DNA of 64,000 bases from an uncultured Planctomycetota bacterium (GTDB lineage Bacteria > Planctomycetota > Planctomycetia > Isosphaerales > Isosphaeraceae), in assembly GCA_963737655.1 (NCBI GenBank), contig CAVTTN010000002.1:5888001-5952000 (forward strand). The letters are read 5' to 3'. A program made the translations under genes and the position numbers. A model generated the notes under the pieces. That model made no database searches. It was not told the DNA's origin and saw only the letters and a list, made by a program, of their open reading frames with translations. Below are positions 27,878 to 57,567 of this stretch, piece by piece. Each line of letters opens with the position of its first letter. Position 1 is the first letter of the stretch.

Positions 27878-28489
27878 CGCCTGCTCTCCCGGTTCGGAGG
27901 ACCCCCGAGGCCGGCCCGCCGTGGTGACGGTCCAGTACGCCGTGGTCGGGGCCCTCGCGACCGGACGCATGCTCGCCGATCGGGACGATGCGCGGCAGTG
28001 GACGGCCGGCGGATGGGGCGGCCGGGACGCCCCCCGAGGCCCCGCGGGGCGGAAGCCGCTTCCGGGGACCGGGGCCGCGACGGTCGGAGGTGGGCGGTCG
28101 GTCTCGGCGTGGGGGCCCCGGCCGTAGGGGCCAAGCCACGCCCCCCGGGCACGCCGGCGGGACGGCCGGCCGGCGGGCGAGGCCGGGGCCGGGGCCGACG
28201 AGACGGGCCGGGGCCGGGGCCGGGGCCGGGGGACGTCACCCCCCCGCCCGGCCGGGCGGGGCGGGTCGGAGGTCGTCCGCGGCCCGGGGGCCGTGCCGAG
28301 ACGCGGCGGGGCCGGGATCGTCGAAGCCCCCCGCCTCGGGTCGACAGCGACGACCGAACCGGCCGCCGAGCGGCGAGGCCCGCCCGGGCGGGGTCGGTCC
28401 CGAGGCACGCCCGAGTGGGAGGTCGGGCGGCGGCGAGGCGGTGGGTCCCCAGGTCGGTGGCGAACGATCCGTCTGTCCCTGAGGATCGA

Positions 28490-29892
28490 CTAACGCTCAC
28501 CATGGAGGGGATCATCCTCCGAATCGGAGGGAATCTGTCCTCCCAATGAACGTTTCGGGGTCTCTTGGGAGGGCTTCTCGCGGCGACCCCTGAGGAGGCG
28601 GGCGGCCACCGCGGCGGCCACCGCCTGGCCGGCGGGCGTCAGCGACCAGGTCGTCTCCCCGCCCTCGCGGCGGAACTCCAGCAGGCCGCCCTCGCGGAGG
28701 CGGTCCCGGGCGTCGCGGAGGGTCTTGGGCCGGTGGCCGGCCGCCCCGGCGCGGTCCTGGACCTCCCGGCTCGGCAGGGGGCGGCGGGCCAGCACGCCGA
28801 GGATCCAGTCCCCCGCCGCCGCGGTCTTCGGCGGCCTGGGCGGCGCCCCCGCGCCAGGTACCTCTCCGGGTCGATCGTCACGCGGGCCTTGCCCATCGAC
28901 AGGGCCTTGAGATTTCGGGGCGAGTGCTCCTCGAGCCATCGGGGCGGGCCCGCCGCGGCGGCCCGGGCCGCCATCGCCTCGAGCAGCGCCCGGGGCCGGC
29001 CGGGGCCGAGGCCGGGGGGCAGGCCGTCGAGCCAGTCGGCGACGTCGGCCTTCTCCGCCGGGGGAGGGAATGCCGGGTCGATGCCCGCCATGGCGTCGAG
29101 GTCGACGATGGTCACCGCGGCAGGCCGGGGGTTCGGTCGGCGGGCCTTGGCGACGACCGCCGCGGCCCACCGCCGCCCGGCCCTGTCGTGGTCGGGCACC
29201 ACGACGACCCGCCTGCCGGCCAGGGGCTGCAGGGTGGTCCGGCCGACGGCGTCGGCCCCGAAGGCGGGCGTCGTCGCGACCAGGCCGATCGCCCGGAGTC
29301 GGTCGGCGCACTGCTCGCCCTCGCAGACCCAGACCTCGTCGGCGGCCAGGACCTCGGGCAGGCCGTAGAGCGGGAGGCGCGCCCCGTTGGGCTGCTCGAG
29401 GGCCCATCGGCCGTCGGGGCGGCGGACGGCGGTCCGGAACTGCTTGGGGCCACCGTCGCGGGGGCGGAACCGGAGCACGGCGAAGTGCGGCGTGCCGTCG
29501 CGGCGGCGGTAGGGGTACGTCGCGACGTGGTCCCAGGGGCGGGTCCGCAGGACGTAGGCGAGGGCGTCCTCCAGGGTCGCGTTCAGCCGCCTACCCCGCC
29601 CGTGCGGCCCCGGGCGCGTCGAAGGCCGGGCGGCGGCCCATCGCGGCAGAGGCAGGCCGATCGCCGCGGCGACGTCCTCTCGCGGGCAGCCGGCGCGGCA
29701 ACGGCAGGTCACGCCGCGGTGGTCGTGGGTCACGGCGAGCGAGGGGCGACGGTCGGCGTGCGCCGGGCAGGTGCCCTCGTACTGGGGCCGGCCGCCGCGG
29801 CCCGGGGCCGCCGGCCGGAGCCTCCGGTCGCCGACCTCGTACGCCGATCGGGACCGCTCGAACGCCTCGCGGCCCGCCGCCTCGTCCGCCAT
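28490..29892 (-). CDS. Primase-like protein (Zn finger + Toprim + wHTH), frameshift near 28840
   Basis: TCPAHADRRPSL...CRCRAGC; VWVCEGEQCADRL; VVVPDHDRAG; other frame WILGVLARRPLPSREV...TLRDARDRL. Confidence 0.75.
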
Positions 29893-29973
29893 GGGCGTGC
29901 GCCTCCTCGCCCCCCCTCGCGACGCGGGGACGACCCCATTCTTCGGGACCGCGGCCCCGGGACGGCAAGCCGG
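29816..29973 (-). repeat. Inverted repeat copy B of 17031-17187
   Basis: Direct comparison; weaker similarity extends to 30097 / 16910. Confidence 0.9.
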
Positions 29974-30859
29974 ACGCGTAGCCTCTCTTCCTGCCGGACG
30001 GCGACCTCCGCGGGGGCGCCGAGGATCGGCGAGCCGACCGCCTCCGCCCTGCGTACCGGAGGGGCCGTGCCGGGATCGGGGTGGACGCGGCGTCCACGCC
30101 CGGGGAGGCTACACGTCATCGATCTCGGCGTCGCTCTCCAGTCGGTGGTACCCGGCCGGGGGCGTGGCGTCGTCCTCGTCGGGGCCCTCGCCGAGGGTGA
30201 TGATGTAGCCGGCCGGGCCGGCCTCGGTGATGTCCTCGGCCCGGCTCATCTCGTCGTCAGGGCAGGAGCCGGGGGCGTTCGGGTCGTCAACGCTCATGTT
30301 CGGCCACCTCCGCCGGGTAGGCTCGTCCGGACTCTTCGGGGCCTCGGGAGTCGGCGGGAATACCTCTCCCCGGCCCTCCCGGATTCTACGCCACCCGATG
30401 GCCCCGCCCCCGGGCCCCCGACCCGAACTCGGGCCTCGACCGATGGGGGCGGAGCGAGCGGCCGTGGACGCCGCGTCCACGCGCGGCGGGGCGGCCGGGT
30501 CGTGGAGAACCCACGCCACCGGGCGTCAGGGTCCCTGTGGCCGCTTCGCGAGCCGATCGCCTGCCCCGAGGGCCGGCGACCGGCAAGAACCCTGAAATCG
30601 CTCCCGGGCCGCGCCCTCGCCGTGCCCCGACAACGCACGGGCCTTGGCGCATCGGCGGACCGACAAACGCCTGGCGTCGCCCGGTCGGCGGCGTTAGGAT
30701 TCGGCGGGCGACGGGAATACGCTCTCGACGACGGGGCCTCCCGGCTCGTCGTGCGTCGGCGTCCCCGGCCCCTTGACCGAACCCCAGGTCCCGAGGCGAT
30801 GCCGCCTCGGCGGGGACCGAGCGATGAGGTTCAACAGGCGCCCGCTCAATCAGTGCCGA

Positions 30860-32130
30860 TGACCTGCCCCCGAATTCTGGTCCAGGGGTTATGAGAGTGC
30901 GGGGTTAGGGATCGTCACGGCCTCGGCCGGGGGGAGCGGAGCGACCCCCGGCTTGATCTGGGCCGCTGCGTACTCCGCCGGGGTCCGATTCCCCAGCGAG
31001 CGATGCGGCCTCCGGTGGTTGTAGTCCAGGCGATGATCTTCGAGGATCATCTTCGCCTCCTTCAGCGTCTCGAACGTCTCTCGGTCCAGCAGCTCGTCCC
31101 TCAGCCGGCTGTTGAACGTCTCGCTGTAGGCGTTCTCCCACGGGCTCCCCGGGGCGATGTACAAGGTCTTCGCCCCACGGCCGGCCAGCCAGCCCCTCGC
31201 CGCCTCGGCGATGAACTCCGGCCCGTTATCGCCGCGGATGAACTCCGGCTCGCCCCGGACCTCGAACAGGGACTCCAGGGTAGATACCACATCCTTCGCC
31301 GTCAGGTGCCGCTCGACCTCGATCGTCAGGCATTCCCTCGTGTACTCATCGACGATCGGCAGCATCTTCAGGCCCCTCCCGTCGGCGGTCTGGTCGTGGA
31401 TGAAGTCGTAGCTCCAGACGTGGTCGGGTCGCTCGGATCGCCGACGGGTGCAGCCGTTCTCGCTCTGCCCCAGACGGCGACGTTTCCTCCGGATCTGCGG
31501 CACCTTGAGGCCTCCTCGACGCCAGAGCCGATGCACCCGCTTGAGGTTGACCGACCACCCCTGCCGCACGAGCAGGGCCTTGATCCGACGGTAACCGTAG
31601 CGGGGGTTCCCTCGGGCCAACTCCCTGATCCGCAACAACAACTCTCCCTCTGGTCCTCGTTCGGTCCCGATGTACCGCCGGGTCGATCGGGGCACGCCCA
31701 GGGCCCGACAAGCCCGACGCTCGGAGATCTTGAACGAGGCCATCGCACGGGCGACGGCTTCCCGCCTCCGGGTCGGGCTCGACGAGTTTCCCCGGGCGGC
31801 CTCCTTGAGGATCGCCTTGTCCAGGGCCAGGTCGGCCACCAGGGCCTTGAGCCGGGCGTTCTCCTTCTCCAGCTCCTTGAGGCGTTTCATCTCGTCGGAT
31901 TTGATGCCGCCGAACTGGCTCCGCCAGCGGTAGTAGGTGTTCTCGGCGATGCCCAGGGCCTTGCAGATCTCGGGGACGGCGACTCCCTTGGCCAACTCGT
32001 CGTCGGCCTCGCGGAGCTTGCGGATGATCTGCTCGGGCGAGTGGCGGATGCGCTTCATGGTGAGTCCTCCTGCCCTGGCGGGCGAGAATGGCTCTCATAC
32101 CAGATGGACCAACCCAGGGGGAGCAGGCCA
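30860..32130 (-). mobile_element. IS3-family insertion sequence
   Basis: IRs TGACCTGCCCCCGAATTCTGGTCCA / TGGCCTGCTCCCCCTGGGTTGGTCCA; no target duplication seen. Confidence 0.92.
30889..32058 (-). CDS. IS3 transposase, OrfA-OrfB in a single frame
   Basis: HSPEQIIRKLREA HTH; WSYDF, IRGDNGPEF, PWENAYSETFN DDE motifs. Confidence 0.93.
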   Translation of the reverse strand: MKRIRHSPEQIIRKLREADDELAKGVAVPEICKALGIAENTYYRWRSQFGGIKSDEMKRLKELEKENARLKALVADLALDKAILKEAARGNSSSPTRRREAVARAMASFKISERRACRALGVPRSTRRYIGTERGPEGELLLRIRELARGNPRYGYRRIKALLVRQGWSVNLKRVHRLWRRGGLKVPQIRRKRRRLGQSENGCTRRRSERPDHVWSYDFIHDQTADGRGLKMLPIVDEYTRECLTIEVERHLTAKDVVSTLESLFEVRGEPEFIRGDNGPEFIAEAARGWLAGRGAKTLYIAPGSPWENAYSETFNSRLRDELLDRETFETLKEAKMILEDHRLDYNHRRPHRSLGNRTPAEYAAAQIKPGVAPLPPAEAVTIPNPALS

Positions 32131-33690
32131 GTGGCGACCGCCCCCCTGCCGGCGGCCCTCGCCGGGGCGACGGCCTCCGCCTCGCCGGGCACGTCCTCGC
32201 TCTCCGGGGGCGTGTTCACCGCCTCCGTCCCGATCCTCCCAGCCGGCGGGTCGTTCGCCGTGACGATCTCGGGGACGGCGATGGCCGGCGGGGCGATCGA
32301 GGGCACGCTCTCCGCGACCTCCGCCATCGCCGACCCGGACCCGACGAACGACTCGGCCACCGCGTCGGTCCTCGTCGAGCGGGCGGCGACCTCGACGACC
32401 CTGACGACGGCCCCCGACCCCTCCGCGATCGGCTCGACGGCCCGGCTCACGGCGGTCGTCTCCGGAGCGGTCGGGGGGCCGGCGCCGGGCGGCTCGGTGG
32501 CCTTCTCGGTCGATGGCGAACTGGCGGCGACGGTCCCGGTCACGGCGTCCCCCGGCGGCTCTTCGGCCTCGGCCGTGTTCTCGACGTTGGCGCTCGGCGT
32601 CGGTTCGCATCGCCTGACCGCCTCCTATTCGGGAGATGCCGACGATGACCCGAGCGACTCGTCGGCCCCGCTGACCGTCGAGCCGGCCGCTACGACGAAC
32701 CGCCTCGCCGCGGATCCCTCGGCCCCGGCCTTCGGCTCGCCCGTGACGTTCACGGCGACGGTCTCGGGGCCGGTGGCGCCGTCGGGCGCGGTGACCTTCT
32801 CGATCGACGGCTCCGCGGCGGCGACGGTCCCGCTGGCGGCGTCCGGGGGAGGAGCCTCGTTCACGACCTCGGCCCTGGGCGTGGGGGCGCATCAAATCGT
32901 CGCGACCTACTGCGGCGACGCCGAACTCGTTGCGAGTGCCTCGGAGGCCGACGCCGTGGACGTGGGCCGGGCGGCGAGCGCCGCCGTCGCCGCGACGCCC
33001 GCCCCGGCCGGCTCGCCCGTGACGCTCTGGGCGACGGTCTCCGGCCCGGCGCCGCCGACGGGGTCCGTGGCGTTCTTCGACGGCACGACGGCCCTGGGGG
33101 CCGCGGCGCTCGGCCCCGACGGCCGGGCCCTGCTGGTCGTCCCGTCGCTGGCGCCGGGGGGCCACTCGCTGACGGCGGCCTACGGGGGCGACGCGGACCT
33201 GCAGCCGGCGGCCTCGGCCCCGGTGGCCCTGGACGTCGAGGAGCCCCTATCGCCGCCGGGCGAGTCGCAGAGGCCGGCGCCGTCCGGGGCGGCCCCGCGG
33301 GTCGTCCTGGTCCAGCGGTTTGGTGTCGCCGGCCGGCTGACGGCCGTGGAGCTGACTTTCAGCGGGCCGCTCGACCCGTCGCGGGCGGGGGAACTCGCCA
33401 ATTACCGGATCGCCGGACCCCGCGGCCGGCCGATCCGGATCGCCTCGGCCGTCGTCTCGGCCGACGGCACGACGATCACCCTGACGCCGGTGCAGCGGGT
33501 CGTGGTGCGGCCGCTCCTCCGGCTGGAGGTGGTCGGGGCCCGGTCCTCGGGCCTGGCCTCGGCCTCGGCCTCGGCCTCGGGGGCCGCCCTCGACGGCCGG
33601 GGCGACGGCTCGCCCGGTTCGGACTACTCGACCACGATCACGGCGAGGGACCTGGTCCGGCCGCCGGCGGAGTCGTCGCGGGCTCGCCGT
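32131..33690 (+). pseudogene. 5'-truncated surface protein: DUF11-like + three Ig-like (Big_3) repeats (3' end unclear)
   Basis: DPDPTNDSATAS; repeated G.V.F..DG...LGVG.H.LTA.YSGD; begins at the IS3 end with no start codon. Confidence 0.75.
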
Positions 33691-36416
33691 CACGTCGGTC
33701 CGGCTCGTCGCGCGGAGTCGAAGGCCCGGCCATCGGCCGCGGGCGTGAGCACGGGTCCTCTCGTCGGGGTCGATCCGAAGGGGCCCGGGCCGGCCCGAGG
33801 CTCGGCCCGATCAGGGTTCGAGTCGCCGGCCCTTGGGACCCGCTCAGCAGGCCCTCCCTCCGGCCGGTCCTTCGCCGAGGGGGCCGGGCCGGCGGGCCCG
33901 GATTCCGCGGGCGCCGGCCCCTTCGCCGGGGGGCGGGACTCATTGGCCTCGGCGGGCCCGGGCGTCTCTCCGCCCTCGGGGTGGGCCTCGGATCGCGGGC
34001 CCGCCGGGCCGAGTTTCCCGGCCGGCTCGTGGTGGGCCGCCGACCCGGTCGCCTCGCCCTCGCTCCCCTCGCCGGCGGCCGTCCCCCGGAACGCCTTCAG
34101 GCCGAGGCCCAGGGCCAGGAACAGCACAAGCAGGGCGGCCATCCCGCCGAAGAAGACCTTCATCGGGCCGGGGACCCCCTCCTCGCCCCTCCTCGATCCC
34201 AGGAGCATGACGAGCGGGGCGGCGAAGGCCACCGTCAGGGCCGAAGCCCCAACGAAGACGTGGCCGAAGCCGAACGACTCGCCCAGGATGTGGAACAGCT
34301 CCACCGAGTACACCGAGATCAGGAAGATCTCGATCCAGTGGAACGCCGACTGGACCTCGGCCACCGAGCGGATGTGCTCCTCGATCCTCTCGGTGTTCCG
34401 GGCCATCTCGGCGGCGCGGACCCGCTCGACGTCGACCGAGTTGGCGTCCCGGACCATCGCCACGACCTCGTCGAGGCGGAGCGCGTCGAAGAAGAGGCGC
34501 TGGAGCCGCCTCTCGGGCAAGACCAGGCCGGACTTCAGGCGGATCAGCCGCCTCATCAGGGCCTCGCCGCGGCGGACCCGGGCGTCCATCTGGTCGGCCC
34601 AGTCGTCCAGCCCGTGAGCGACCGGGGGCTCGTGGACCAGCGCCTCGGCGTCGCGGGCGATGGCCGTCCACTCCGCCAGGTCGGCGGCCATCGCCTCGGC
34701 GCGGGCCCGGGCCGGCTCCTTCATCGCGACGACGATCCCGCGGCGGCTCCAGACCCCCACGCCGTCGGCGTCGACGACCAGGTGGTGGTCGCGGAAGTCG
34801 CCCGGGGGCTCGGGCCCGTCGCGCCCCTCCAGCAGGGTCCAGAGCAGATGGCTGACCCGGAGCGCGACCTCCCCGCGGAGCGGGTCGGCGCCTCCGGCCA
34901 GGGCCACGTGGCCGAAGCGGTAGCAGCCCGGCGAGGGCGGGTCGGTCCGGGCGATCGCCTCCGCCAGGGCGTGGGCCCGTTCGCCCCGGTCCTCCACTCC
35001 GGTCGTCGCCGGGCGGTCGTGGATTGTCACGTCCGAGACCAGCGGGAGCTCCAGCTCGTCGCGGACGAGCTTGGCGATCGGGTCGTCCTCCAGCCCGGGG
35101 GACGTGCCGGGCGGTCCGATCAGGGACCCTCGGTTCGGGGTGGCGACGATCGTGCCGCCGTAGTTGCTGCCGTCGAACCAGGGGTCGACGAAGAACCCCT
35201 CGGAGCCGTCGGCCCGGCCCCCGAAGCCGGGCCTTGCCCGGCCCTCCAGGGGGGAGCCGGCCGGCGCCCGGACCTCCTCGGCCTGGAGCCGGGACCAGAC
35301 GTTGTAGAGGTGACGGCCGCCGGCGCGCTCCGGGTCGAGCGCGAAGAAGTACTCCGTCGAGTTCACCGGCGAGCCGGCCCGGCGGCCCGAGTAGGCGATC
35401 GCCGTGAACAGGAAGCCCTCGCCCGACGCCGAGCCCTCGGCGTCGCCCCGGGCCCACTCCTTGAACAGGAGGCATTCCGGGTCGCGGAGGTACAGGCCGT
35501 CGACCTGGCGCCTCCTCTGGTACGGCGGCTGGAGGTGGACCGGCCGGATCGAGCCGCCCTTCTTCAGCAGCGACTGGTTCAGGACCGCCGTGTACCATTC
35601 GCCGAACGGGACCGTGGAGTCCAGGAGCGTCACGGTCGCCTTCCTCGCCCGGCGGAGGTCGCGGCGGTAGGCCTCCACCTCGTGGTCCAGGAGCCGGAGC
35701 TCGGGGGCGAACTCGGCGCTTCCCTCCAGGACCGAGTCGGCCAGGGGGTCCAGGGCCCCGGGGCCGGCGTCGGCCAGGAGGCGGGCGACCTCGTCGAAGA
35801 AGCCGCAGGCGCCGTCGGCCGCGCCGTAGCCCCCGCCCCGGCGGTGGACCGCCGCGTAGAGGACCGAGTGGAGCGAGCGGTTCCCGGGGCATTTCAGGCG
35901 GCGGCAGTTGTCCACGAACGCGGCGTAAGAGGCCAGGAGCACCGGCCATCGCCTCTCCGACGGCCAGCCGTCGGTCTTCGGGCCGAACCAGTCGACCTCG
36001 CCCGCGCCGCCCAGCCAACCCTCGGGCCGGAGGCCGAAGTCGGGCCAGCCGTCGGCCGGGACCGCGCCGTCCATGAGCCGGCGGGCGAGGTACATGGCGC
36101 AGAAGGCGTCGAAATCGGGGTCGCGGTGGGTCACGAACCAGAAGTCCCCCTCCGCCTTCTGCCCCAGGGCCGCGACCTTCTCGGCATTGTGCAGGACCGC
36201 CGCGGCGGCCGAGGGGAACTGGCCGGCCTGGCGGAAGAAGTGGTGGTCCAAAACCGGCCGATCGACGCCGTCATGGCCCCAGCAGGCGCCGCCGACGTCC
36301 ACCGCCAGCTCGTTGTCGTGGAGCGTCGCCGGGTCGAAGGTGCCCTCGATCCGTGACCGTCCCCGGGCTTCGTGGAAGTATGTCCCGTATCCGACATAGC
36401 GATAGCGAGGTCTCAT
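33690..36416 (-). CDS. Permuted DHH-type phosphoesterase fused to a CorA-like helical/TM C-terminus
   Basis: AVDVGG...VLDHH...SAAAAV precede FVTHRDPDFDAFCAMYL; long helical stalk then three hydrophobic segments; ATGA overlap with the upstream gene. Confidence 0.65.
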   Translation of the reverse strand: MRPRYRYVGYGTYFHEARGRSRIEGTFDPATLHDNELAVDVGGACWGHDGVDRPVLDHHFFRQAGQFPSAAAAVLHNAEKVAALGQKAEGDFWFVTHRDPDFDAFCAMYLARRLMDGAVPADGWPDFGLRPEGWLGGAGEVDWFGPKTDGWPSERRWPVLLASYAAFVDNCRRLKCPGNRSLHSVLYAAVHRRGGGYGAADGACGFFDEVARLLADAGPGALDPLADSVLEGSAEFAPELRLLDHEVEAYRRDLRRARKATVTLLDSTVPFGEWYTAVLNQSLLKKGGSIRPVHLQPPYQRRRQVDGLYLRDPECLLFKEWARGDAEGSASGEGFLFTAIAYSGRRAGSPVNSTEYFFALDPERAGGRHLYNVWSRLQAEEVRAPAGSPLEGRARPGFGGRADGSEGFFVDPWFDGSNYGGTIVATPNRGSLIGPPGTSPGLEDDPIAKLVRDELELPLVSDVTIHDRPATTGVEDRGERAHALAEAIARTDPPSPGCYRFGHVALAGGADPLRGEVALRVSHLLWTLLEGRDGPEPPGDFRDHHLVVDADGVGVWSRRGIVVAMKEPARARAEAMAADLAEWTAIARDAEALVHEPPVAHGLDDWADQMDARVRRGEALMRRLIRLKSGLVLPERRLQRLFFDALRLDEVVAMVRDANSVDVERVRAAEMARNTERIEEHIRSVAEVQSAFHWIEIFLISVYSVELFHILGESFGFGHVFVGASALTVAFAAPLVMLLGSRRGEEGVPGPMKVFFGGMAALLVLFLALGLGLKAFRGTAAGEGSEGEATGSAAHHEPAGKLGPAGPRSEAHPEGGETPGPAEANESRPPAKGPAPAESGPAGPAPSAKDRPEGGPAERVPRAGDSNPDRAEPRAGPGPFGSTPTRGPVLTPAADGRAFDSARRAGPT

Positions 36417-44587: not shown

Positions 44588-45697
44588 TCAGTCGGGCCGG
44601 GGGCCGAGAGAGTCGAGCGCCTCCAGGAGCCGGGGCGGCTTCAGGCAGGTGCAGGAGGCGCAAGGCGTCTTTCCCGCCACGCCGAGCCGGCCGACCTCGG
44701 CGAGGGGGCCGGGCCCGGCCTTGAAGACCGTCCCCTTGCCGGGTCCGCCCCCGGCCAGCCAGCGGACGAAGTGGCAGCGGAGCGGCTCGACCTCGACCCA
44801 GCCGCCGGCCTCGACCTCCCGGCGGCTCCAGGCCGACGACCCGCGGTCCTCGTACGGCTTCCACCAGACCTCCAGCCGCCCCTCCAGCACCCCGTAGATC
44901 TCGACGATCGGGGCGCCGTGGACGTGGACGTCCTGCGGGTCCTTCGCGGTGAAGAAGCTCCAGGTGAAGCCCAGCCCCTGCCTCTGGTGGCGGAGGTACG
45001 GGTCGGCCACCCGGAGGTTGAACGCCCGGGGGCCGGCCTCCAGGATCGCGTCGAGCGTGGCCCGGTCGAGGATCGACACGCCCGAGCGGTTCCGCGACCG
45101 CCACCGCCGGGCCAGGGCGTCCATCGACGGCCCCGAGACGTCGCCCCCCAGCCACCTCCTCGAGGCGCCGACGCGTCGCTCCTCCTCCGGGCGGGACCGG
45201 TATCGGGCCTCCAGATCCGCCTCTCGGGCCCGGAGCCCCTCGAAGACCAGCCGGGCCGTCGGCGACAGGTCGGGCCGGGCCAGGGCGTCCCCGGCGGTCC
45301 GCCACTCGCCGCCGAGCCTCTGGGCGATCGGGCCGAGGTCGTCGGGATGGACCCAGGCGACGATCGGGTAGATCGTGTACCGGGTTGGCTCGCCCAGGGC
45401 CGGCGAGACGAGCTCGACGGACTCGGCCGGCAGCTCCTCCTCGATCGCGTAGCGGCCGTCGTCCAGGCCGAGGTCCCCCTGCATCAGGTCGTCGACGAAC
45501 GCCTCGACCGAGCGGCCGTCGAGCGAGGGGGCGGCCTCGTCCCGGACCGTCTTCTTCGCAGGAAGGCCGAGGAGCGGGGCCTCCCCCGACCCGACGTGCC
45601 ACCGGGGGTGGGGGTGGATGAGAAAAAGGGTCTCTCCGGGCCCACCGCCTCCTTGAGGGATGAGCATGTGGACGACGTGAACGCTCCGCCCTGTCAT
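44588..45697 (-). CDS. Hypothetical protein: degenerate NUDIX-like N-terminus + cupin C-terminus
   Basis: Cupin HVH...EIYGVLEG...CHFV; N-half FLIHPHPRW...LPAKK...SPALGEPTRYTIY...EWRTAGDAL resembles NUDIX fold (weak). Confidence 0.55.
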   Translation of the reverse strand: MTGRSVHVVHMLIPQGGGGPGETLFLIHPHPRWHVGSGEAPLLGLPAKKTVRDEAAPSLDGRSVEAFVDDLMQGDLGLDDGRYAIEEELPAESVELVSPALGEPTRYTIYPIVAWVHPDDLGPIAQRLGGEWRTAGDALARPDLSPTARLVFEGLRAREADLEARYRSRPEEERRVGASRRWLGGDVSGPSMDALARRWRSRNRSGVSILDRATLDAILEAGPRAFNLRVADPYLRHQRQGLGFTWSFFTAKDPQDVHVHGAPIVEIYGVLEGRLEVWWKPYEDRGSSAWSRREVEAGGWVEVEPLRCHFVRWLAGGGPGKGTVFKAGPGPLAEVGRLGVAGKTPCASCTCLKPPRLLEALDSLGPRPD

Positions 45698-46377
45698 GGC
45701 AACCCCCGGCCCTCGCCCGGTGCATTTCCTATGGATAAAGTGGCGGTTCACGGCCAGCGAGTCAAGGACGGCGAAGGCCACGTCCGGCGCGTGGCCCGGC
45801 CCCGATTGTCGCCGGCATCCGGTGCCTCCTCGCCGATGCCTCAATATCCGGTTTTCCTGAAGCCATGAGAATTAAGTTGGCACCCCCGGGCTCGCGGTGG
45901 GACAATCCGTCCGAGCAGAGACCGGGGATCAGAGATTCGGGAACGGGGCCGAGGAGGCAGATATGGTCTCGCAGATCATCCGATGGAATTGCCCGGGTGC
46001 CGGAGGGGGCCTGATCCTGGGCCGTCTCCCGTTCGGGCCCTCGGCCATGGGTGAGGTCCCGGGCAGGGTCAGGCGACCGCTTCTGCGAGCGGGATCCGGG
46101 GGTGGCCGGGGGCCAGGGACCCCGATCGAACGGGATTTTCCTTGAAAACGCACCAGGGGCCCTTGAGACCGCTCGGCCCGTCACGCCTATGACGTCGTGC
46201 GCAGGGCCCGTCACGATGACGTCCTCAATCCTGAGCGTGCGATCCCTCACGCGGCTGTCCGGGCTCCGAAGACGCCGCCGAGGGCGGGCCTGAGGCCGGT
46301 GCTCGATCCGGTCACGCGGCCTGGGAGGCCGGACTTCGCGCGTGCCGGTCCGCGGAACCCTCGATCGGAGGCCGGGC

Positions 46378-49334
46378 GTGCCGACGACCGAGCCCGCGAC
46401 GCTGGACGATCGGATCAATTTCCTCGTCGAGGCCGTCGATCCCGAGATCCGCCTCGGCCTCCAGCAGCAGCTCAGGACCCTCCGCGGCGCCGACAATCCC
46501 CTCGGCGTGGTGCTGGGCATGTCCCGGCTGGCAATCCAACTATTTCGGCTCATCTATCGAGATGCCGGCAAGAAATGGCCGGACGGCGACAACCTCTATT
46601 CCGTCATCGTCCGGGCCGCGAAGGGGGATGCGGCCGAAAAGATCCCCGGATACCAGATCCTGCCCGAGGCGCTCGACTCGCCCCTTCACACGCTCCGCGT
46701 GATGTCGAACAAGGTTGATCACGCGGCCGAGCGGTTCCGCATCGGCGTGGACGAGGCCGAGATGGTCCTCAACGCCCTCCTCTCGGTCCTCCGCTGGTAC
46801 TACTGCGATTCGTCGCTCGCCTCGCCCCCCCTGCCGGCGATCTATTCGTTCGGGCCTCCGACCCCGGCGGGTCCGCCTCGGGTGCCCCGGTCGGGGGCGG
46901 ATGGGGCGCCCTCGAACCTCCCCTATTTCGACGACGCGTTCGTCGGGCGTCTCCATGAGTTGGAGCAAATTCGCTTCCTCCTGGTCGACGAGGCGAAGGG
47001 GGTCGTGACGATCACCGGGACCGGGGGGATCGGCAAGACGAGGTTCGCGTGCGAGGCGGCGAGGGCCCTTCTGCCCTACTTTCCCGGGGGAGCCTTCCTG
47101 GTCGAGCTGAAGGAGAGGCTGACGATCGACGACCTCTGCGTCGCCATCGGGGACGCCTTCGGGTTGAGGCTCGACCAGCAGGACCGGCCGATAGACGTGA
47201 TCGGCAGCTTCCTGAGGTCGCTCGCCCGGCCGACCCTCCTCGTCCTCGACAACTTCGAGCACATGGCCATCCACGCGGATCGGACCGTGAGGGCCTGGAG
47301 GTCGACGGCCCGGGCCGTACAGATGCTCGTGACCAGCCGAGTCTCGCTGGGGACCTCGGGGGAGCACCTCTTCCCGCTGCCGAGCCTCGACGTCCCTCCC
47401 CCCGTGATCCTGGGGACGGGGGAGGCGTTGGCCCCGGGAGCGGGGCCGGTCCAGGAGCCGCCGGGGCTCGGGAGCGAGGACATCAGGGCCATCGGCCACA
47501 ACGAGGCGGTCCGGCTCTTCTGCCAGGCCGCGTCCTCGCGGGGGCGGCGGTTCGAGCTCGATGCGGCGACGGCCATCCCCGTGGTCCAGATCTGCCAACT
47601 CCTCCAGGGCCAGCCCCTCCCGATTATCCTCGTGGCCAAGCGCGCCCGCTTCCGTCCCGTCCTGGACCTGTACCTGGAGGCGAGCGAGAGCCCGCTCGAG
47701 GCCGCGTTTGCCGACGGCCAGACCCTGCGTGCGACCATCGCATGGAGCTACGACCTCCTGTCCGAGGGCGAGCGCGACGTCTTCCGGCAGGTCTGCGTCT
47801 TCCGCGACGGGTTCACCTCCGATGCCGTCGACGAGGTCGTCGCCCCCTCGGACGGTTCGGGGCGCAGCGCCGAGGAATTCGTCGAAAGATTGTGCGACTA
47901 CAGCCTCGTCGAGTGCGTCCCCCGGCCCGACGGCCGGACCCGATTCACCCTGTTCCAGACGGTCCTGGACTTCGGGAGGAACCTCTGGCCCGAGGGCCCG
48001 GATCGCCCGCCCCCGGGGGTCGCTCTGCGCTGGGCGGAATACTGCGCGAGGTCTGCCGAGCTCTGGGCCGGTCGCATTCCGACCGAGGAGTGCGGGCCGG
48101 CCCTCGACCGGCTGGTCGAGGAGCGAGAGAACCTCCTGGCCGCCCATCGCTGGGCCCTGGCCTCGGGCGAAGCGCACCTCGCTTCCCGCATCATCCTCGC
48201 CTTCGCCCCGGCCCTCAAGTACCGAGGGCCCTGGACGATCCGCGTCGAGAGGCTCCTGGAGACGCTGGACGTCACCCCCCTCGACGACGGCCGCCTCGGG
48301 GTCCTCCTGCGGATCGAGGCTCTCGGACGCCCTCTGGGGCATCGGCGACTACCCGGCCGCGCTGGAGGCCGCCCAGGCGGCCCTGGCCGCGGCCCGGGTC
48401 CTCCCCGCCACGGATCTCCCCCTCCTCGCCCGCTCGCTGGACGAGGCGGCGAAGCGGGCCGCGGACAACGGAAAGACGGCCCTCGCCGTCCGACTGCACG
48501 AGGAGGGCCGGGACCTCGGGATCCGGGAACGGGACGAATTCATCATCGCCCTCCACGAGACCGGCCTCGGTTCCATCTTCGACCGCGCCGGAAGGTTCGA
48601 TGAGGCGCGATCCTCCGTCCGTTCCGCCGTCGGCCGCCTCGAGCGTTCGGCCGACCCGATGACGCTGGCCTGGGCCGTTAACCGGCTGGGGCTGGTGCTC
48701 TGGCACGAGGGCAAGAGCGAGGAGGCCCTCGGGCACTTCGTGAGGGTCGAGCGTCTGTTCCGACAGGTCGATTACCCCCGTTGGTACGCAGGGGCGATGA
48801 CCAACCAGGGCCTCGCCTTGAATGACCTGGAGCGATTCGAGGAGGCCGAGGTTTGCTTCCGGGCCGCGGGTGCCATCCACACCGGTCAGGGGAACCGCTC
48901 CTGGTGGGCCGTCAACCAGGCCGGCCTGGGCGCGAACTATCTTCTCAGGGGCCGCCCGGCAATGGCGATCCAGGTGCTCTCGGGCGCGATGCTCGCGGCC
49001 CAGGAGACGCATTATCTCGAGAATCTGGCCCTGATCCACGGGCTCCTCGGTCGGGCCTATTCCCAGCGGGGCGAATACCCCGAGTCGAGGGCCCATCTCG
49101 TCCGGGCGGTCGTCATCGAGCACGGCATCGGGACCCGCGACCGGCGCTGATTTCGGGAATCTCGTCCGGCTGGCCTGGGTGCTGACCGCGTTGGGTAGGC
49201 CCCTGAAGGCCCGGTCCCTGCTCCGGGTCGGCGGCGAACTCTCGAGGAGGCTCGGGCTCTCCGCAACGCATCCCCTCGGGCCGGTCCGGGACGACCTGAA
49301 GATCGCCCGGGAACTCCAGGGGCCCCCGACCTGA
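46378..49334 (+). CDS. DUF4145/HEPN-like + NB-ARC (AfsR-type STAND) + TPR; frameshifts near 48320 and 49148
   Basis: LRVMSNKVDHA; TGTGGIGKT, LVLDNFEH, QGQPLPI, TIAWSYDLL; TPR frame AVNRLGLVLW, AMTNQGLAL. Confidence 0.82.
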
Positions 49335-49659
49335 ATCGACCGGAAACGCATTTCTCGCCCGTCCACCCCATCCGCCATCCGGGCCGTCGATTCGCCGGGC
49401 CGACAAGGCGAACGAGGAGGCCGACCTCGGGCGATTCGACATGCAAGGGCCAACATTACTGATTAGAATCCACGGGTCGTCATCGGACCAGGCCGCGCCG
49501 CCGCGACCTCGGGTACGGGCGGGTTGCCGCCGACGCAACCGGCATGCTCGGGCCGCAACCCGGGAGGGCCCGGGGCGAACGGCCGGGGCCTGGGCGACGT
49601 CCTGGCGGGTGAGGGGCCTCCGTTCCGGCGGCCCTCGATCGATCGAGGGGAGGGGCATC

Positions 49660-52600
49660 ATGGGGGCTTCCGACTCGTTCTTCCCGGCCCGGGCCGATCG
49701 CGACGTCCGGGACGAGGTGATCCGCGAATACCCGTTCCCCCTGGCCGTGACCTATGCCCGGCTCCAGGACGAGCTGGAACTCCAGGAGCCGGTCGCCGCG
49801 GCCTGGCAGATGCGGGACGCGATGGAGTCTTTCCTGAAGTTCTCCGCGAGCCTGGCCGTCGCCGACGCCCTGGCCTCCGGCCCCGACCCGAAGCTCGCCG
49901 GGGAGCTCGCGGGCCGGCTCCTGAAGTGGGGCGGCCTCGTCCTGGGGGACTGGCACGAGCTGGTCCGATTGCCCCTGAAACCCCTGGAGGAGGCCGCCCG
50001 CGCCGGCCGGCTCGACTGCTCGGGCCGTCGCCTGCCCGAGCTGTATCTCCTGTTCTTCAGCCCGAAGAACGGGCGGCCCTCGCCCCTGCATCGGCTGATC
50101 CAGGGCGACGGATCGGCCTTCATCGCCTGGAGGAACAGGGAGTTCGGCCACGGCCTGTTCCGCCGGGATCGCGCCTGGTACGCGAAGGAGACCCTCGGCT
50201 GGATCGATCGCCTCCACGCGCTCTACGACGGCCTGAAGCCGGTCCTGGCGGGGTGGTCGCTCGTGGGCCAGACCCCGGGCGGGGAGCGGGTCGAGTGGCA
50301 GGGGACGGACCGGCCGCCCCATGCCCCACCCCACGAGCACGAGCCCTGGGGCGAGCCCCTGCCGATGCTCCTGGTCCACGAGGACGGCCGCGAATTGCCG
50401 CTCGGCCCGCTCCTGTCGGTCCAGCACTGCACGCTCTGCGGCCATCCCGCCGCGTTCTACTTCGACAAGAGTGAGCGGAAAAAATATGGCCACAGCACCC
50501 ATTTCCTGGAGTACTTCGGCGGCCACCCGCACATCCATGCCAACTGGAACCAGACCCTCCGCCTCGCCGGTTTCCTCCCGCCCGAGTTCGAGTTCACTCG
50601 CGAGGCCCACGACCCCGACGAGCTGGCCGAGGGCATCCGCCTGGCGTTCCGCGACTTCGACGCCGAGTACTTCCCCCGGCCTACCTCCTCGAACGGGTCT
50701 GGGCGCTCGCCGAGGACCGTGCCCGGGGCTACGTCCACCTCGTCGGCCCCGAGGGGATGGGCAAGACGTTCGTCATCCGCGGCCTGGAGCGGGAGTCGAA
50801 GGCGAAGTCCATCCCGGTCCTGGCGTACCACGTCCTCCCGGGCGCGGCGGCCCTTTATCAGACGTTCCTGGTCGAGCTGAACGAGAGGGCCCGCGACGCC
50901 CTGAAGCTCCGCACGATCGATCCCCAGATCAAGGGGGAGACGACCCCCGAGGGGATGCGGGAGGAGTTCGTGGCGTACCTCACGACCCTCATGGAGGCGA
51001 ACCGGCTCGACCGCCTGATCGTCGCGATCGACGCCCTCGACGAGCTCCCGGACCCGCCCGCGAAGACGCCTTCGATCACCGACTTCCTGCCGCCCGCGGC
51101 GGAGCTTCCCCGGGGCTGCACGATCGTCCTGACGGGCCGCCCCGCGCTGCGTCCCCGCGCGGCCTCCGACCTCGACCGCGTCCGAACCGCGTCGGGAGTC
51201 GAATCGTTCACGACGATCCCCCTCGACCCCGCCGCCCCGGCCAACCGCGACCTCCTCCGGGCCTACCTGCTGCGAAAGGAGCACCTGCCGGCCGGTCTCT
51301 CCACGCCCGAGCAGGCCGACGCGGTGATCGAACGGGCCGGCGGGGTGTTCCTCTACGCCTTCCACCTGAGCCGCGCGCTCCGCTCCGGGGCCTACGCGGA
51401 CATCGCCGCCCTGCCCGACGGGGATCGGTTCTACGCCGACTACCTCGGCCGGCTCCGCGAGACGGCCGGCGACCGCCTGTTCGAGGAGGTCTACCTCCCC
51501 GCCCTGATCCTCCTGTCGGCCGCGTTCGCCCCGGTCACGCTCGGCCAGCTCGTGCGCTGGGGCATCCCGAAGGACCGGCTCCCGTTCGCCCTGATCGACC
51601 TCCACGACTTCCTCCGGGTCCACCGGGTCCGCGGCTGGCACGACTCGCTCGCCCCCGAGGGCCCCGAGCCCGAGCGCCGCTACGAGATCGCCCACGACGC
51701 CTTCCTCCGGTTCGTCCGCTCCGACCCCACGCTCTCCGCCCTCCTGCGAGATGCCCACGCGAAGATCGGCGCCGCGGCCCGCCCGAAGGACGGTTGGCCG
51801 AGCATCAGCCCGTTCGAGGACGAGGAGATTTACAACCTGATCCACGTCCTGCCGCACCTCCGCGAATCGGGCCGAACGGACCTGCTCCGCGCCGTGACGG
51901 CGGACGAGTCCTACGCGGAAACTTGCTGGGCGATCGGGAATCTCGCGCAGGACAGTGCGAGATTCCACATCGCCGAGAAGCTCCACGACCGATCGGAGAA
52001 GGTCTATCGGGAGTTGGTCGACTCGGGCCGCGTCGAGCTGGCCAACGACCTGGCCGGTGCCCTCATGAACCGCGGCAACGCACTATCGAATCTCGGCCGG
52101 CTGGCGGAGGCGGTGACGGCGTACGACGAGGCGGTCGCCATCCTCCGCCGGCTCGTCGACTCGGGCCGCGGCGAGCTGGCCAACGACCTGGCCGGTGCCC
52201 TCATGAACCGCGGCAACGCGCTGTCGGATCTCGGCAAGCTGGCGGAGGCGGTGACGGCGTACGACGAGGCGGTCGCCATCCTCCGCCGGCTCGTCGACTC
52301 GGGCCGCGTCGAGCTGGCCAACGACCTGGCCAAGGCCCTCATGAACCGCGGCGTCTCCCTCCGCAACCTGGGCAAGCTGGCGGAGGCGGTGACGGCGTAC
52401 GACGAGGCGGTCGCCATCCTCCGCCGGCTCGTCGACTCGGGCCGCGTCGAGCTGGCCAACGACCTGGCCAAGGCCCTCATGAACCGCGGCGTCTCCCTCC
52501 GCAACCTGGGCAAGCTGGCGGAGGCGGTGACGGCGTACGACGAGGCGGTCGCCATCCTCCGCCGGCTCGTCGACTCGGGCCGCGTCGAGCTGGCCAACGA

Positions 52601-53012
52601 CCTGGCCATGGCCCTCTTCAACAAGGCGTGGCTTCTGAAGAAGCAGGAAGATTGGCCCGCGGCCCTGGAGTGCTACGACGAGGCAATCGGGCTGCGAGAG
52701 GGCTGCGTCGAGGCCGGGATGGTCCATCTCCTGGGCAAATTGCTCCAGACCATCCGCTACCGGATGATGACCCTGCTGGACCTCGGGCGGTGGGACGAGG
52801 CCGCCGAGGATGTCGTCCGATTGCTCGACCATGCCCGGCCGGCTCTGGAAGCGGAGGAGATGCCGCAACCGATCCTGAAGGAGATCGGCGCGATGGTGGG
52901 CCGGTTGCGGAACCTGCCGGAGGAGGCGTGGATCCGGGTTGAGTCCGGGCTGGGCGATTGGGCGGAGATCGTCCGTCAGTGGGTGAAGGGGACGGGCGAG
53001 GATGAGGATTGA
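49660..53012 (+). CDS. HEPN-like + STAND ATPase + TPR; frameshift near 50680
   Basis: YPFPLA...WRNREFGHG; GYVHLVGPEGMGKT, IVAIDALDE; 46-aa TPR repeats. Confidence 0.82.
52020..52625 (+). repeat. Tandem 138-bp TPR-coding repeat, 4 full units plus a partial
   Basis: GACTCGGGCCGC at 52020, 52158, 52296, 52434, 52572. Confidence 0.95.
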
Positions 53013-54531: not shown

Positions 54532-57500
54532 ATGACCGCTCCCGCCGAGCCTCGCCACGACCGCCTGCCGACGCCCGTGGCCGAGCTGGTCGAGCGCGCC
54601 CACCGCGGAGACGAGCCGGTCGAGGCGAGGCGAGAGGCGATGCTGAAGGTGCCGGAATGCCTCCTGAGGGTCGCCTCGCTCCCGCTCCTGGCCGTCTGCC
54701 TGAGAGGACCCTCGATCCACCCGGAGATGGCCAAGCTCCTGTCCCTGTTCGGCTTCCCCACGTTCTCGACCTGGCGATGGCTGGCCAAGGTGCTGAAGAG
54801 GGGGGACCTCGGCACCGACTGGGGCCCCCTGGCCGGCTACCGCGAGGACTTCGGCCGGGCCTACCGGTTGGTGAACGAGACGACCGCGGTGGCCCGGCCG
54901 GAGTACGCCCTCGGCGCCGCCGGGAAGGAGGCCGGCCTCCTCGACCTCTTCCAGGGCCTCCGCAACCACTGGGCGCACTCCTCCGGGACCTCGCCGGCCC
55001 TCTGCCGGAGGGACCTGGACGAGTACCTCCCGCGTCTGGACGCGATCCTCGACGCCTTCGCCTTCCTCGGGCGCTACCGCTTTTGCTCGATCGCGGGGGA
55101 CGGCCACCAAGCGACCCTGTTCCGGGGCGTCCGCCCGGCGGAGATCGACCTGGCCGATGGGGCCAGCGAGGGGGCGGCCCTGCTGACGCCCGACGATCGG
55201 GCGGTCCCGCTCTCGCCGCTGGTGGTCCCGGGGCCCGACGGCGCCCTCGGCTGGTTCGATGGCTACCGGCTGGGACGCGACGGGCCGGACGCCTCCGACG
55301 GCCTGGCCTATCAGACCGACCTCGGCCGGCAATACCGCTCGGGCCCGGTGGCGGAGGGCCTCCGGGCCCTGTTCCGGGCCCACAACGTCCTGCTGCTCCC
55401 GGGCTCGAAGGGCCTGACCCTCCGACGATTGAACGAATACCTCTCGGCGGTGACCGGCCAGAACCTGAAGGAGCTGGACGCCCGGTACGGCCGCGACCTC
55501 TTCGTCGATCGGCCCGCCCTGACCGGGGCCCTCAGGGCGTTCGTCGAGGGGGAGCGGTCGGAGGAGGCGCCCGTGGCCCTGCTCCTGACCGGGCCGGCGG
55601 GGTCGGGCAAGTCCGGGCTGCTGGTCCACCTGGCCCAGGGGCTCCTCCGGGCCCCGGGGGGAGGCCCTGGCGTCCTCCTGATGAGGGGGGACAAGTTGAC
55701 GGTCGAGGGGGACATGCCCCAGATCCTCTTCTCCAACCTCCTGATGATGCTCGGCGCCGACCGGGAGGAGGTCCGCACCTTCGCGGACCTCTGCGAGAGG
55801 CTGGAGGCCAGCCGCAAGGGGGAGGACCGGGACCTCCGCCTCGTGGTCGTCTTCGACGGGGTGAACGAGGCGTCGGACCGGCCCGAGAAGGTCTTCCGCG
55901 AGCTCCTGGACGTCATCGCGACGGCCCGCCCGTACCGCTGGATTCGGATCGTGGCGGCGGTCCGCTCGGACTTCCTCCGGAGGCACAGGGCGGGGCTGGA
56001 AGGGGCCGAGAAGGACCCGCTCCACGGCCTGCGCGACCTGCTGGCCACCCCCGGGCCCGACGCCCCGGAGGAGATCCGCGGCGAGGGCCTCCCGGTCTGG
56101 GCCGTCCCGACGATCACCGAGGCCGAGCGCCGGGAGATCTACGAGCGGTTCCGGGCCCGCCGCGCCGAGGGGACGCCCGGGGTCCCGGCGTGCCTGACGC
56201 CCTGGGACGGCCTCGACCCCGAAATCCGCGGGAAGATCCTCGACCGGCCTCTCTTGATCCGCCTCTGGATGGAGCTGTACGACGGCCGGCCCGCCGGGGC
56301 CCTGCACTCGGTCTCGGACCTCTACATCGCCTACCTCGACGCGCTCTCGGCCTCGATGCCGGGGCTGTCACGGGTCGCGCTGCCCCGGGTCGTCGAGCAC
56401 ATGCTGAGGGTCGGCCGGTCGGCGCTGACCGACGAGGACGCCGGGCAGATCCGGGCGTCCGGGCCGGCGGGGGGCGACGCGCTGTCCGCCCTGGTCGCCG
56501 CGGGCCTCTTCGAGGTCCGGGTCCCGACGACCGGGCCGGTCCGCTACGGCGTGTTCCACGAGCGGATGGCCGAGGCCCTGGCCGCCCGGTGGCTCCGCGA
56601 GTCGGTCGGCTACCCGGCCCGGCCCGACGGCGACCGGCCCCCGCCGGCCATCGATCCCGCCGCGCTCAGGGCCTGGGACGCGTTCCCCCGCCACTCGCTC
56701 AACCCCCTCCTGTTCGGCGGCCTGGAGCTCTTCATCCGCCGCCTCCTGGACGTGAAGGACTGGAAGAACGCCTCGCGGGTCCTGGAGCACGTCGACTTCC
56801 AGATGCCCCCGGGCTCCAGTTGGCTGTTCCTCGCCGGCCGCCAGAACCTGACGATCGAGTTCCGCGAGGCGCTCCGCGACCGCCTGGAGGACCGGTCCCT
56901 CCGCCAGCAGAACCTCTTCCAGCTCGGCCTGGGCTACATCCGGGCCGGCCGTCACGAGGAGGCGGCCGACGCCCTCGGCCTGGCTCGCTCGCTGGGCGGG
57001 AGCCCGCAGATGAGGGCGGCGATCGCGATGTACACCGGGCTCTGCCTGGTCCGCGAGGGGGACCTCGATCGCGGGGAGGCCGAGCTGGAGGCCGCCCGAG
57101 GGCTGGCCGCCGGGACCCGGCTCGAGGGGAACGTCCACGGCCACCTCGCCAGCCTGAGGGTCAGGCGGCTCCGGGCCTCCGGCGGCGATCGGCCGCCCCC
57201 GCAGGATGTCCAGGAGGTGGTCGAGGCCCTGTACCGTCGCGCCATCGAGCTGAACGGCCGAGGAACCCGGCCCGACCGCCGGTGCGAGGTCTTCTGGAGG
57301 AAGGAGTGGGGCGAGACGCTCCTGTTCCTCGGCCGGGCTGGCGAGGCCGTGGACGAGTTGGAGGCCGCCTGGACGACGTGCGTGGCCAGCGGCCTGGATG
57401 CCAAGTGCCGGCTCGACCTCCACCTCGCCCTGGGCCGGTCCTACCGGTTCGAGGGCCGGGGCAACGAGGCCGACGAGCAGTTCCGGCTCGGCCTGGCCTT

Positions 57501-57567
57501 GGCGGCCGAGATCGGCGACGCCGAGCTCCGGCAGGCCCTGGAGGCCGCCAAGGCGGGCGGCCCATGA
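54532..57567 (+). CDS. HEPN-like + STAND/NACHT-like ATPase + TPR
   Basis: LPTPVA...LRNHWAH; TGPAGSGKS, VVFDGVNE; C-terminal TPR-like helices. Confidence 0.83.
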   Translation: MTAPAEPRHDRLPTPVAELVERAHRGDEPVEARREAMLKVPECLLRVASLPLLAVCLRGPSIHPEMAKLLSLFGFPTFSTWRWLAKVLKRGDLGTDWGPLAGYREDFGRAYRLVNETTAVARPEYALGAAGKEAGLLDLFQGLRNHWAHSSGTSPALCRRDLDEYLPRLDAILDAFAFLGRYRFCSIAGDGHQATLFRGVRPAEIDLADGASEGAALLTPDDRAVPLSPLVVPGPDGALGWFDGYRLGRDGPDASDGLAYQTDLGRQYRSGPVAEGLRALFRAHNVLLLPGSKGLTLRRLNEYLSAVTGQNLKELDARYGRDLFVDRPALTGALRAFVEGERSEEAPVALLLTGPAGSGKSGLLVHLAQGLLRAPGGGPGVLLMRGDKLTVEGDMPQILFSNLLMMLGADREEVRTFADLCERLEASRKGEDRDLRLVVVFDGVNEASDRPEKVFRELLDVIATARPYRWIRIVAAVRSDFLRRHRAGLEGAEKDPLHGLRDLLATPGPDAPEEIRGEGLPVWAVPTITEAERREIYERFRARRAEGTPGVPACLTPWDGLDPEIRGKILDRPLLIRLWMELYDGRPAGALHSVSDLYIAYLDALSASMPGLSRVALPRVVEHMLRVGRSALTDEDAGQIRASGPAGGDALSALVAAGLFEVRVPTTGPVRYGVFHERMAEALAARWLRESVGYPARPDGDRPPPAIDPAALRAWDAFPRHSLNPLLFGGLELFIRRLLDVKDWKNASRVLEHVDFQMPPGSSWLFLAGRQNLTIEFREALRDRLEDRSLRQQNLFQLGLGYIRAGRHEEAADALGLARSLGGSPQMRAAIAMYTGLCLVREGDLDRGEAELEAARGLAAGTRLEGNVHGHLASLRVRRLRASGGDRPPPQDVQEVVEALYRRAIELNGRGTRPDRRCEVFWRKEWGETLLFLGRAGEAVDELEAAWTTCVASGLDAKCRLDLHLALGRSYRFEGRGNEADEQFRLGLALAAEIGDAELRQALEAAKAGGP

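Follow-up and report, generated by a model that had tools for sequence, protein, structure and literature searches.

What kind of protein results when the motifs of a DHH phosphoesterase stand in an unfamiliar order and are followed by a CorA-like membrane region? The question is raised by P0001, an open reading frame (ORF) on a 64,000-nucleotide stretch of DNA, referred to here as the window, from an uncultured Planctomycetota bacterium (assembly GCA_963737655.1, contig CAVTTN010000002.1, positions 5,888,001 to 5,952,000). A GAGGAG site was found 5' of the gene, the start of which overlaps the stop of the upstream gene. No family was found for P0001 in Pfam, NCBIfam or PADLOC scans, and its domain family is missed by profile libraries because the motifs are reordered. 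A word-based search, in which 7990 candidates were scored, identified 341 relatives, and 498 clusters at 50% identity came from a full HMMER scan. P0001 thereby represents a domain family that lacks annotation and numbers several hundred clusters. The 44 genome loci of the family came mostly from metagenome-assembled genomes of Acidobacteriota, Planctomycetota and Verrucomicrobiota, and several genomes carried two copies. A search for stand-alone forms returned 36 shorter matches, most of them spanning part of the DHH module only, while a PDB sequence search with the family profile returned coiled-coil noise only. The anatomy of P0001 was found to be real and well supported, and a function is tentatively proposed, that of a pore gated by a nucleotide.

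It had been noted from the sequence alone that VDVGG, LDHH and SAAAAV precede THRDPDFD, and this order (residues 39-43, 56-59, 69-74 and 96-103, respectively) proved to be a property of the family: of 134 homologues, 124 had the DHH motif ahead of HxxPD[FL]D, one of the two motifs was missing by pattern from the remaining 10, and the canonical order was seen in none. Residues D40, D57, H58, H59, H97, D101 and D103 were conserved at 95-100% in 339 aligned sequences. AlphaFold2 models were confident (predicted local distance difference test score of 93 for residues 1-781 and 96 for residues 1-458), and the model of residues 1-458 is predicted to have the DHH/DHHA1 fold, as had been expected; in a VIA search with these residues, ranks 1-18 were all occupied by chains of the DHH superfamily. 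The best match was a pAp phosphatase (8a8k; Z 10.8, root-mean-square deviation (rmsd) 4.2, 238 aligned), followed by the pGpG phosphodiesterase PggH (7d62; Z 9.6, rmsd 4.9, 236 aligned). Foldseek with the same residues gave no PDB match at E<=1e-3 and one Pandoravirus match (E 8.6e-4). Most full-length VIA rows started well into the matched chain (8a8k at 25, 7d62 at 29, RecJ at approximately 100), which by the numbering of these enzymes is past motif I; a few started earlier (5o1u at 12, 8iu7 at 16).

In a profile comparison of the module with 14 NrnA-type proteins (hhalign), residues 89-116 of P0001 aligned to NrnA 21-48 (probability 82%, E 1e-5) and residues 33-62 to NrnA 86-121 (probability 16%, E 0.0016). 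Convergence of the motifs was checked by direct-coupling analysis of the 339 sequences (effective number 223). Strand 91-97 was coupled both to strand 2-8 (Y5-F94, z 5.4; R6-V95, z 4.5) and to strand 35-41 (N35-W93, z 4.2; D40-H97, z 4.0), and the motif I helix packed against the motif II strand (L37-A111, z 11.3; V39-A107, z 7.9). The coupled set of strands, 2-8/91-97/35-41/54-58, gives the sheet order of canonical DHH enzymes. Couplings were also observed between catalytic positions (D40-D101, z 4.7; A70-D169, z 4.7; D101-D169, z 3.7). Judging from this covariation, motif I, displaced behind the DHH motif, returns to the same active site, which agrees with the claim that DHH and PDFD belong to one metal site. 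The stretch between H59 and H97 is devoid of conserved acidic residues, so that motif IV cannot precede motif I. The motif IV aspartate is likely to be D169 (89% D, 9% E), which is coupled to A70 and D101 and was not aligned to NrnA motif IV by hhalign. Because this likely motif IV and DHHA1 come after motif I, the sequence evidence describes the order II-III-I-IV-DHHA1 as a swap of two segments inside the N-terminal catalytic lobe, and circular permutation of the whole domain was rejected. The original prediction of a circular permutation is corrected in this respect.

The C-terminal ~330 amino acids had been described as a CorA-like stalk without GMN. Foldseek with the whole P0001 model gave 49 matches at E<=1e-3, and all rows shown were T. 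maritima CorA (best E 9e-6, TM-scores ~0.2). By VIA-align, residues 571-741 matched CorA, ZntB and Mrs2 at Z 7-8.6, which is close to the scores of unrelated common helical bundles. The C-terminal region was matched by a profile built from 19 canonical CorA proteins (probability 42-49%, E 2e-4), which aligned YGMNF with YSVEL (703-707), GMN falling on S704-V705-E706. By Foldseek and profile the head, stalk and transmembrane (TM) helices of the CorA/ZntB layout are present, and residues ~459-776 are CorA-like, with YGMN replaced by YxxE in the family. The CorA-like character of this region was thus upheld, at modest scores, as was the absence of GMN; its extent was revised, since a low-complexity tail of 127 amino acids follows it. 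The Mg2+ filter motif is indeed missing, as GMN was found in 0 of 134 homologues and GxN in one, and P0001 had no match to PF01544. A separate canonical corA is present in the genome. Conservation on the TM1 face was 76% for Q689, 77% for E696, 76% for Y703 and 67% for E706, the first three being in heptad spacing. No similarity was found between the CorA-like region and one CorA from a type III CRISPR locus, a weak test with a single-sequence template.

The rearranged module is mobile, and was observed fused to CorA-like regions, TIR domains and kinases. Among 61 related genomes the full P0001 gene was found only in its own and was absent from all three genomes of the same genus; a distant match in two others proved to be a Ser/Thr kinase joined to the rearranged module, with no CorA part. 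A search seeded with this kinase–module protein gave 222 proteins of a sister family; among the 120 listed, a kinase was present in 96 and a TIR domain in 13, while 11 matched no Pfam family. The modules of the two families align (hhalign probability 99.8%, E 1e-28) and the sister family keeps the catalytic, metal-binding positions. In sister proteins the module follows the kinase but precedes TIR, which is C-terminal and takes the slot of CorA in P0001. Within the P0001 family itself, TIR replaces the membrane hairpin in P0156 and is N-terminal in P0133. Seven sister loci were read: a TPR–class III cyclase adjoined three (two of one genus; one frameshifted and weakly matched), a HEPN-like–kinase gene adjoined two, and a helix-turn-helix (HTH)-like N-terminus was recognised by eye in one. 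The sister family had no match in viral contigs. The cyclase-adjacent kinase–rearranged-DHH loci (L210:11016-19999, L230:8702-12796 and L233:7506-11613) form a candidate cyclic-nucleotide circuit, and L210 also holds cyclic nucleotide monophosphate-binding/iron-sulphur and NuoF-like genes. Rearranged DHH–TIR fusions comprise P0347, P0354, P0357 and ten more. A DHH protein of canonical order encoded on a viral contig (L199:7989-8882) has a near-identical motif flavour (VTHxxPDFDA, DMGG, DHH, CAA) and no Pfam match, and is a possible unpermuted relative.

The genes of the P0001 family are tied to HEPN-like–STAND/kinase genes and rarely to CRISPR. P0001 is the last of a three-gene run (HEPN-like–STAND–TPR, TCAD9–HD, P0001), and a HEPN-like search that used residues 1-330 of P0003, the first protein of this run, as the seed showed that all three HEPN-like copies of the 7.6-Mb genome lie inside the window. 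A HEPN-like domain, fused to STAND NTPases or kinases, was found at most five genes away in 26 of 125 family loci, and the RNxxxH motif was invariant in 14 of 14 aligned domains. Genomes of 37 of the 44 loci were searched, the other seven loci coming from genomes already covered; 24 of these 37 carrier genomes had a HEPN-like domain, and in 17 it lay within the 10-kb flanks, compared with ~0.2 adjacent cases expected from 40 matches in ~205 Mb, a count that overstates independence because a single arrangement recurs in 11 of these 17 cases and neighbouring genes were used to build the HEPN-like model. In a tree covering 115 loci (short rows dropped) the HEPN-like label, carried by 28 tips, changed 14 times, counted without a shuffle control, and was present in the deepest branches. 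Among the 61 relatives, a HEPN-like domain was present in all three genomes with the DHH module versus 2 of the 58 others. A conserved three-gene run was also seen (L004:12414-16969 and similar loci), consisting of a family gene, a HEPN-like–NACHT gene of ~1280 amino acids and an S-adenosylmethionine (SAM)-dependent methyltransferase. In L028:5268-10004, L042, L148 and L155 a more divergent RNxxxH STAND protein, missed by the HEPN-like model, is encoded upstream, and in L028 this gene overlaps the start of the family gene.

For most of the family, membership of type III CRISPR systems was rejected, as linkage to cas10 or type III loci was not found. No Cas10 or RAMP match was obtained in the P0001 genome (88% complete), in which type I-C-like cas genes were recognised by eye ~35-55 kb from P0001, and RAMP genes were present in 5 of 37 carrier genomes and were not found in the other 32. 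SAM-AMP is unlikely to be the ligand of most members, since neither the P0001 genome nor those 32 carriers yielded type III markers. CRISPR arrays adjoin 2 of 124 family loci. In L123, which is of the same branch as P0001, the family gene is followed by reverse transcriptase (RT)-Cas1, Cas2 and an array; L039 starts with an array, the repeat of which recurs on another contig with Cas10, RAMPs, RT-Cas1 and a CRISPR-type CorA. Occasional recruitment of the family to CRISPR loci is possible, and shared residence in defence islands explains the adjacency equally well. The genome of L039 (G233) holds, in L201-L202 and L039, a type III locus with CRISPR-type CorA, Cas10, RAMP fusions, Cas6-RT-Cas1 and a HEPN-like–STAND-TPR gene, and its array seems to run on to the contig with a HEPN gene and family member. 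The reading frame of P0146 continues into apparent translated CRISPR repeats.

How might these parts work together? P0001 may be a pore that is gated by a nucleotide, resets itself and belongs to a conflict system other than CRISPR, a reading that we prefer without considering it established or even probable. The module stands before a pore or TIR and behind a kinase, and is therefore most simply a ligand sensor; its metal site is intact, and it would therefore also be an enzyme and hence a timer. HEPN RNases leave 2',3'-cyclic phosphates, and we infer a scheme of four steps. A neighbouring TPR-bearing STAND NTPase or kinase would sense infection or stress and activate its HEPN-like RNase domain. 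In the weakest of the steps, a nucleotide product, most likely one bearing a 2',3'-cyclic phosphate, would bind the cleft between DHH and DHHA1. Closure of the cleft could then pull the CorA-like head and stalk and open a pore lined by acidic residues (E696, E706) and not selective for Mg2+, so that the cell would be depolarised and enter dormancy or die. Slow metal-dependent hydrolysis by the DHH module would finally reset the oligomeric pore. An HD domain of the type found in P0002 can remove 2',3'-cyclic phosphates. The more general proposition that the rearranged DHH is a portable, hitherto unrecognised nucleotide receptor with a timer, which would read the RNA-breakdown products of a HEPN RNase switched on by a sensor and would open a pore derived from CorA, is unlikely. 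If true, it would amount to a second-messenger pathway without a dedicated synthetase; TIR domains and kinases would be driven by the same receptor, which in sister systems would read nucleotides made by cyclases. With RNA-breakdown products as the ligand, defence signalling would need no synthetase.

Several observations weigh against the nucleotide-gated pore, among them the low TM-scores and bundle-like Z scores of the CorA matches, the non-independence of the HEPN-like count and the lack of a PADLOC match, all given above. Its ligand, oligomeric state, gating and enzyme activity are predictions. No relative of P0001 was found in plasmids and no full-length relative in viral contigs, where the one motif-only match was a DHH protein of canonical order, and no class III cyclase-like ORF was detected in 125 family loci with a two-sequence model. 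Pfam support for HEPN was weak (E 0.002-0.02 in a few of the 14 members), no HEPN-like gene was nearby in 97-99 of 125 loci, and in a 52-tip clade, the named members of which are mostly Acidobacteria, the gene lies among housekeeping genes. The stable inheritance of that large clade and the two copies in several genomes would suit a housekeeping phosphoesterase tethered to the membrane (a nanoRNase, a pAp phosphatase or an enzyme that heals RNA ends) with the CorA-like part as an oligomeric anchor, or an antidote limiting HEPN damage; pAp phosphatase and PggH are the top structural matches, and HD and HEPN-like neighbours would fit RNA-end repair. The conserved polar TM1 face (Q689, E696, Y703, E706) is however not something that an anchor requires, three ordinary DHH genes are present in the genome, the distribution is patchy, and TIR fills the CorA slot in other members, which leaves a tethered enzyme improbable.

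It is also doubtful that the DHH module is an off-switch only, destroying a signal which the CorA-like head binds and an unlinked synthetase makes. The fully kept catalytic residues fit such a role, as do the two array-adjacent loci, one of them in a genome having a type III locus with the same repeat, and a direct precedent is described in PMC10600005, where CorA binds SAM-AMP and NrN degrades it. Against this, invariant residues are scarce in the CorA-like head relative to the DHH module, a sensor is the better match for the fusions of the module to kinase and HTH-like domains, and RAMP genes occur in so few carriers. The kinase fusions, which predominate among the listed sister proteins (96 of 120), and the TCAD9 and Ser/Thr kinases neighbouring several family loci could instead indicate that the module undoes the action of the linked kinases as a protein phosphatase or de-nucleotidylase, the pore being controlled by covalent modification; TIR fusions and cyclase neighbours point to nucleotides, however, and DHH/DHHA1 enzymes act on nucleotides and polyphosphates, so that we give this little credence. 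An ordinary CorA/ZntB divalent-cation transporter with a regulatory DHH domain, to which the CorA-like fold and an acidic TM1 face able to bind cations might point, is very improbable, given the loss of GMN and GxN and the lack of a PF01544 match, the genome's own canonical corA, and membrane helices that are poorly conserved and replaceable by TIR.

Table 1. P0001, its parts and its neighbours in the window (positions counted from the first letter of the window)
Feature	Position	Strand	Description	Basis
P0001	33690..36416	minus	908-amino-acid ORF: rearranged DHH/DHHA1 module, CorA-like region, low-complexity tail	
P0001 residues 1-87	36156..36416	minus	Strand 2-8, motif II (D40), motif III (D57-H58-H59), SAA helix; middle part of canonical DHH lobe	hhalign
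P0001 residues 88-116	36069..36155	minus	Displaced motif I strand and helix (H97-x-x-P100-D101-F-D103)	hhalign, couplings
P0001 residues 117-256	35649..36068	minus	Helical; D169 (putative motif IV), linker helix 237-256	model, couplings
P0001 residues 257-458	35043..35648	minus	DHHA1-like; FKEWAR (318-323), DPWFDG (411-416), no GGGH	VIA rows over 246-458
P0001 residues 459-691	34344..35042	minus	CorA-like alpha/beta head, helical hairpin, stalk	Foldseek, VIA-align, profile
P0001 residues 692-776	34089..34343	minus	Predicted TM1 (Q689, E696, Y703, E706; YSVEL replaces YGMNF), TM2, extra TM3	model, profile
P0001 residues 782-908	33693..34073	minus	P/A/G/E-rich unconserved tail, likely disordered	conservation
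P0002	36413..39361	minus	TCAD9 kinase-like domain and HD domain; translationally coupled, upstream of P0001; same position in L012/L124	
P0003	39383..43174	minus	HEPN-like domain (RNGTAH), STAND/NACHT-like NTPase, TPR; second upstream gene	
Gene without family match	44588..45844	minus	Start uncertain; 55% identical homologue precedes TCAD9-HD in L012/L124	
Second HEPN-like locus	49300..53012	plus	HEPN-like domain (49300-50880) and overlapping STAND-TPR frame (50475-53012); appears split	
Third HEPN-like gene	54532..57567	plus	HEPN-like–STAND-TPR	

The gene without a family match has two domains; its C-terminal half appeared by eye to be cupin-like, and a NUDIX identity for this gene was unsupported. 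A LysR regulator is encoded upstream of the P0001 operon (~43600-44572, plus strand). Downstream of P0001, positions 24755-33240 of the window form a mobile, repeat-rich stretch with insertion sequence (IS)-like ORFs at 24755-26140 and 30889-32058, an Ig-domain gene that the IS seems to have interrupted at 32058, and ParB-like and primase-like ORFs at 26819-29892 (by eye; weak Pfam zinc-finger match). The island continues beyond the window (contig positions 5952000-5980000) with a DEAD-box helicase, a WYL regulator and an array surrounded by two type I-C-like cas sets.

With regard to known systems, P0001 has all the metal-binding motifs and the two-lobe fold in common with pAp phosphatase 8a8k, PggH 7d62, NrnA, RecJ and GdpP, and differs from canonical DHH/DHHA1 enzymes in the order II-III-I-IV, in insertions, in the lack of a Pfam (PF01368) match, in the fusion of its type of module to CorA, TIR, kinase or HTH-like domains, and in having no GGGH in DHHA1, a motif present in canonical NrnA, RecJ and PggH. 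With CorA, ZntB and Mrs2 (2-TM-GxN) it shares the alpha/beta head, helical hairpin and long stalk leading into TM1 and TM2, whereas the family has YxxEL in place of YGMNF, often a third TM helix, and no PF01544 match. DUF6687 (PF20392), the third Atlas match of P0001 at 0.87 and a lead only, also has a rearranged motif order (VDG, SHW, NNHxDxDG, GDF in 19 of 19 proteins read; L046-L065), and its members are probably rearranged DHH-like enzymes. Motif order is all that the two have in common, as P0001 had no Pfam match to DUF6687, profile similarity was negligible (hhalign probability 1-9%), DUF6687 has SHW rather than DHH and no CorA part was present in those read. MYG1 (PF03690), which resembles P0001 in DVG/DHH/SAA, gave no Pfam match and differs in motif order.

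Sensor-effector fusions of nucleotide-signalling defence, such as SAVED-TIR, CARF-TM/Cam1 and Csx23 (described in part in PMC11229360), resemble the P0001 module in the reuse of one nucleotide-binding module before TIR or membrane effectors; what is reused in P0001 is a DHH enzyme whose site is intact, and there is no consistent linkage to a synthetase. No description of permuted DHH, DUF6687 or the P0001 gene context was found in the literature covered, which excluded supplements and most subscription papers: the main text of PMC7159879 has no DHH, CorA or TCAD9, and the available passages of PMC7824862 and bioRxiv 10.64898/2026.10.19.760177 have no permuted DHH. In type III CRISPR systems, according to PMC10600005, PMC11229360 and bioRxiv 10.1101/270033, DHH nucleases are adjacent or fused to CorA, with NrN degrading the SAM-AMP that CorA binds; NrN and CorA form a pair in Bacteroides fragilis and are fused in Aliarcobacter butzleri and Beggiatoa sp. 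PS. NrN–CorA and P0001 are alike in combining a DHH phosphoesterase with a divergent CorA-type membrane protein, a proposed signal-gated pore with its own signal-degrading enzyme. They differ in that motif I is displaced in P0001, the NrN structure (9lq9) aligning only to model residues 90-457 (Z 6.7), and in that the P0001 family mostly has no cas10 or RAMP and is partnered by HEPN-like–STAND/kinase genes. By analogy, and as part of the tentative reading of P0001 as a nucleotide-gated pore, P0001 may work like NrN–CorA without being a member of that system. P0001 shows that DHH and CorA are also fused outside CRISPR, in a protein that seems to have been put together independently of its CRISPR counterpart. 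This bears on a question raised in PMC10600005, namely why CorA effectors need an adjacent degrading enzyme; with both parts in a single polypeptide, the choice between sensor and off-switch becomes directly testable.

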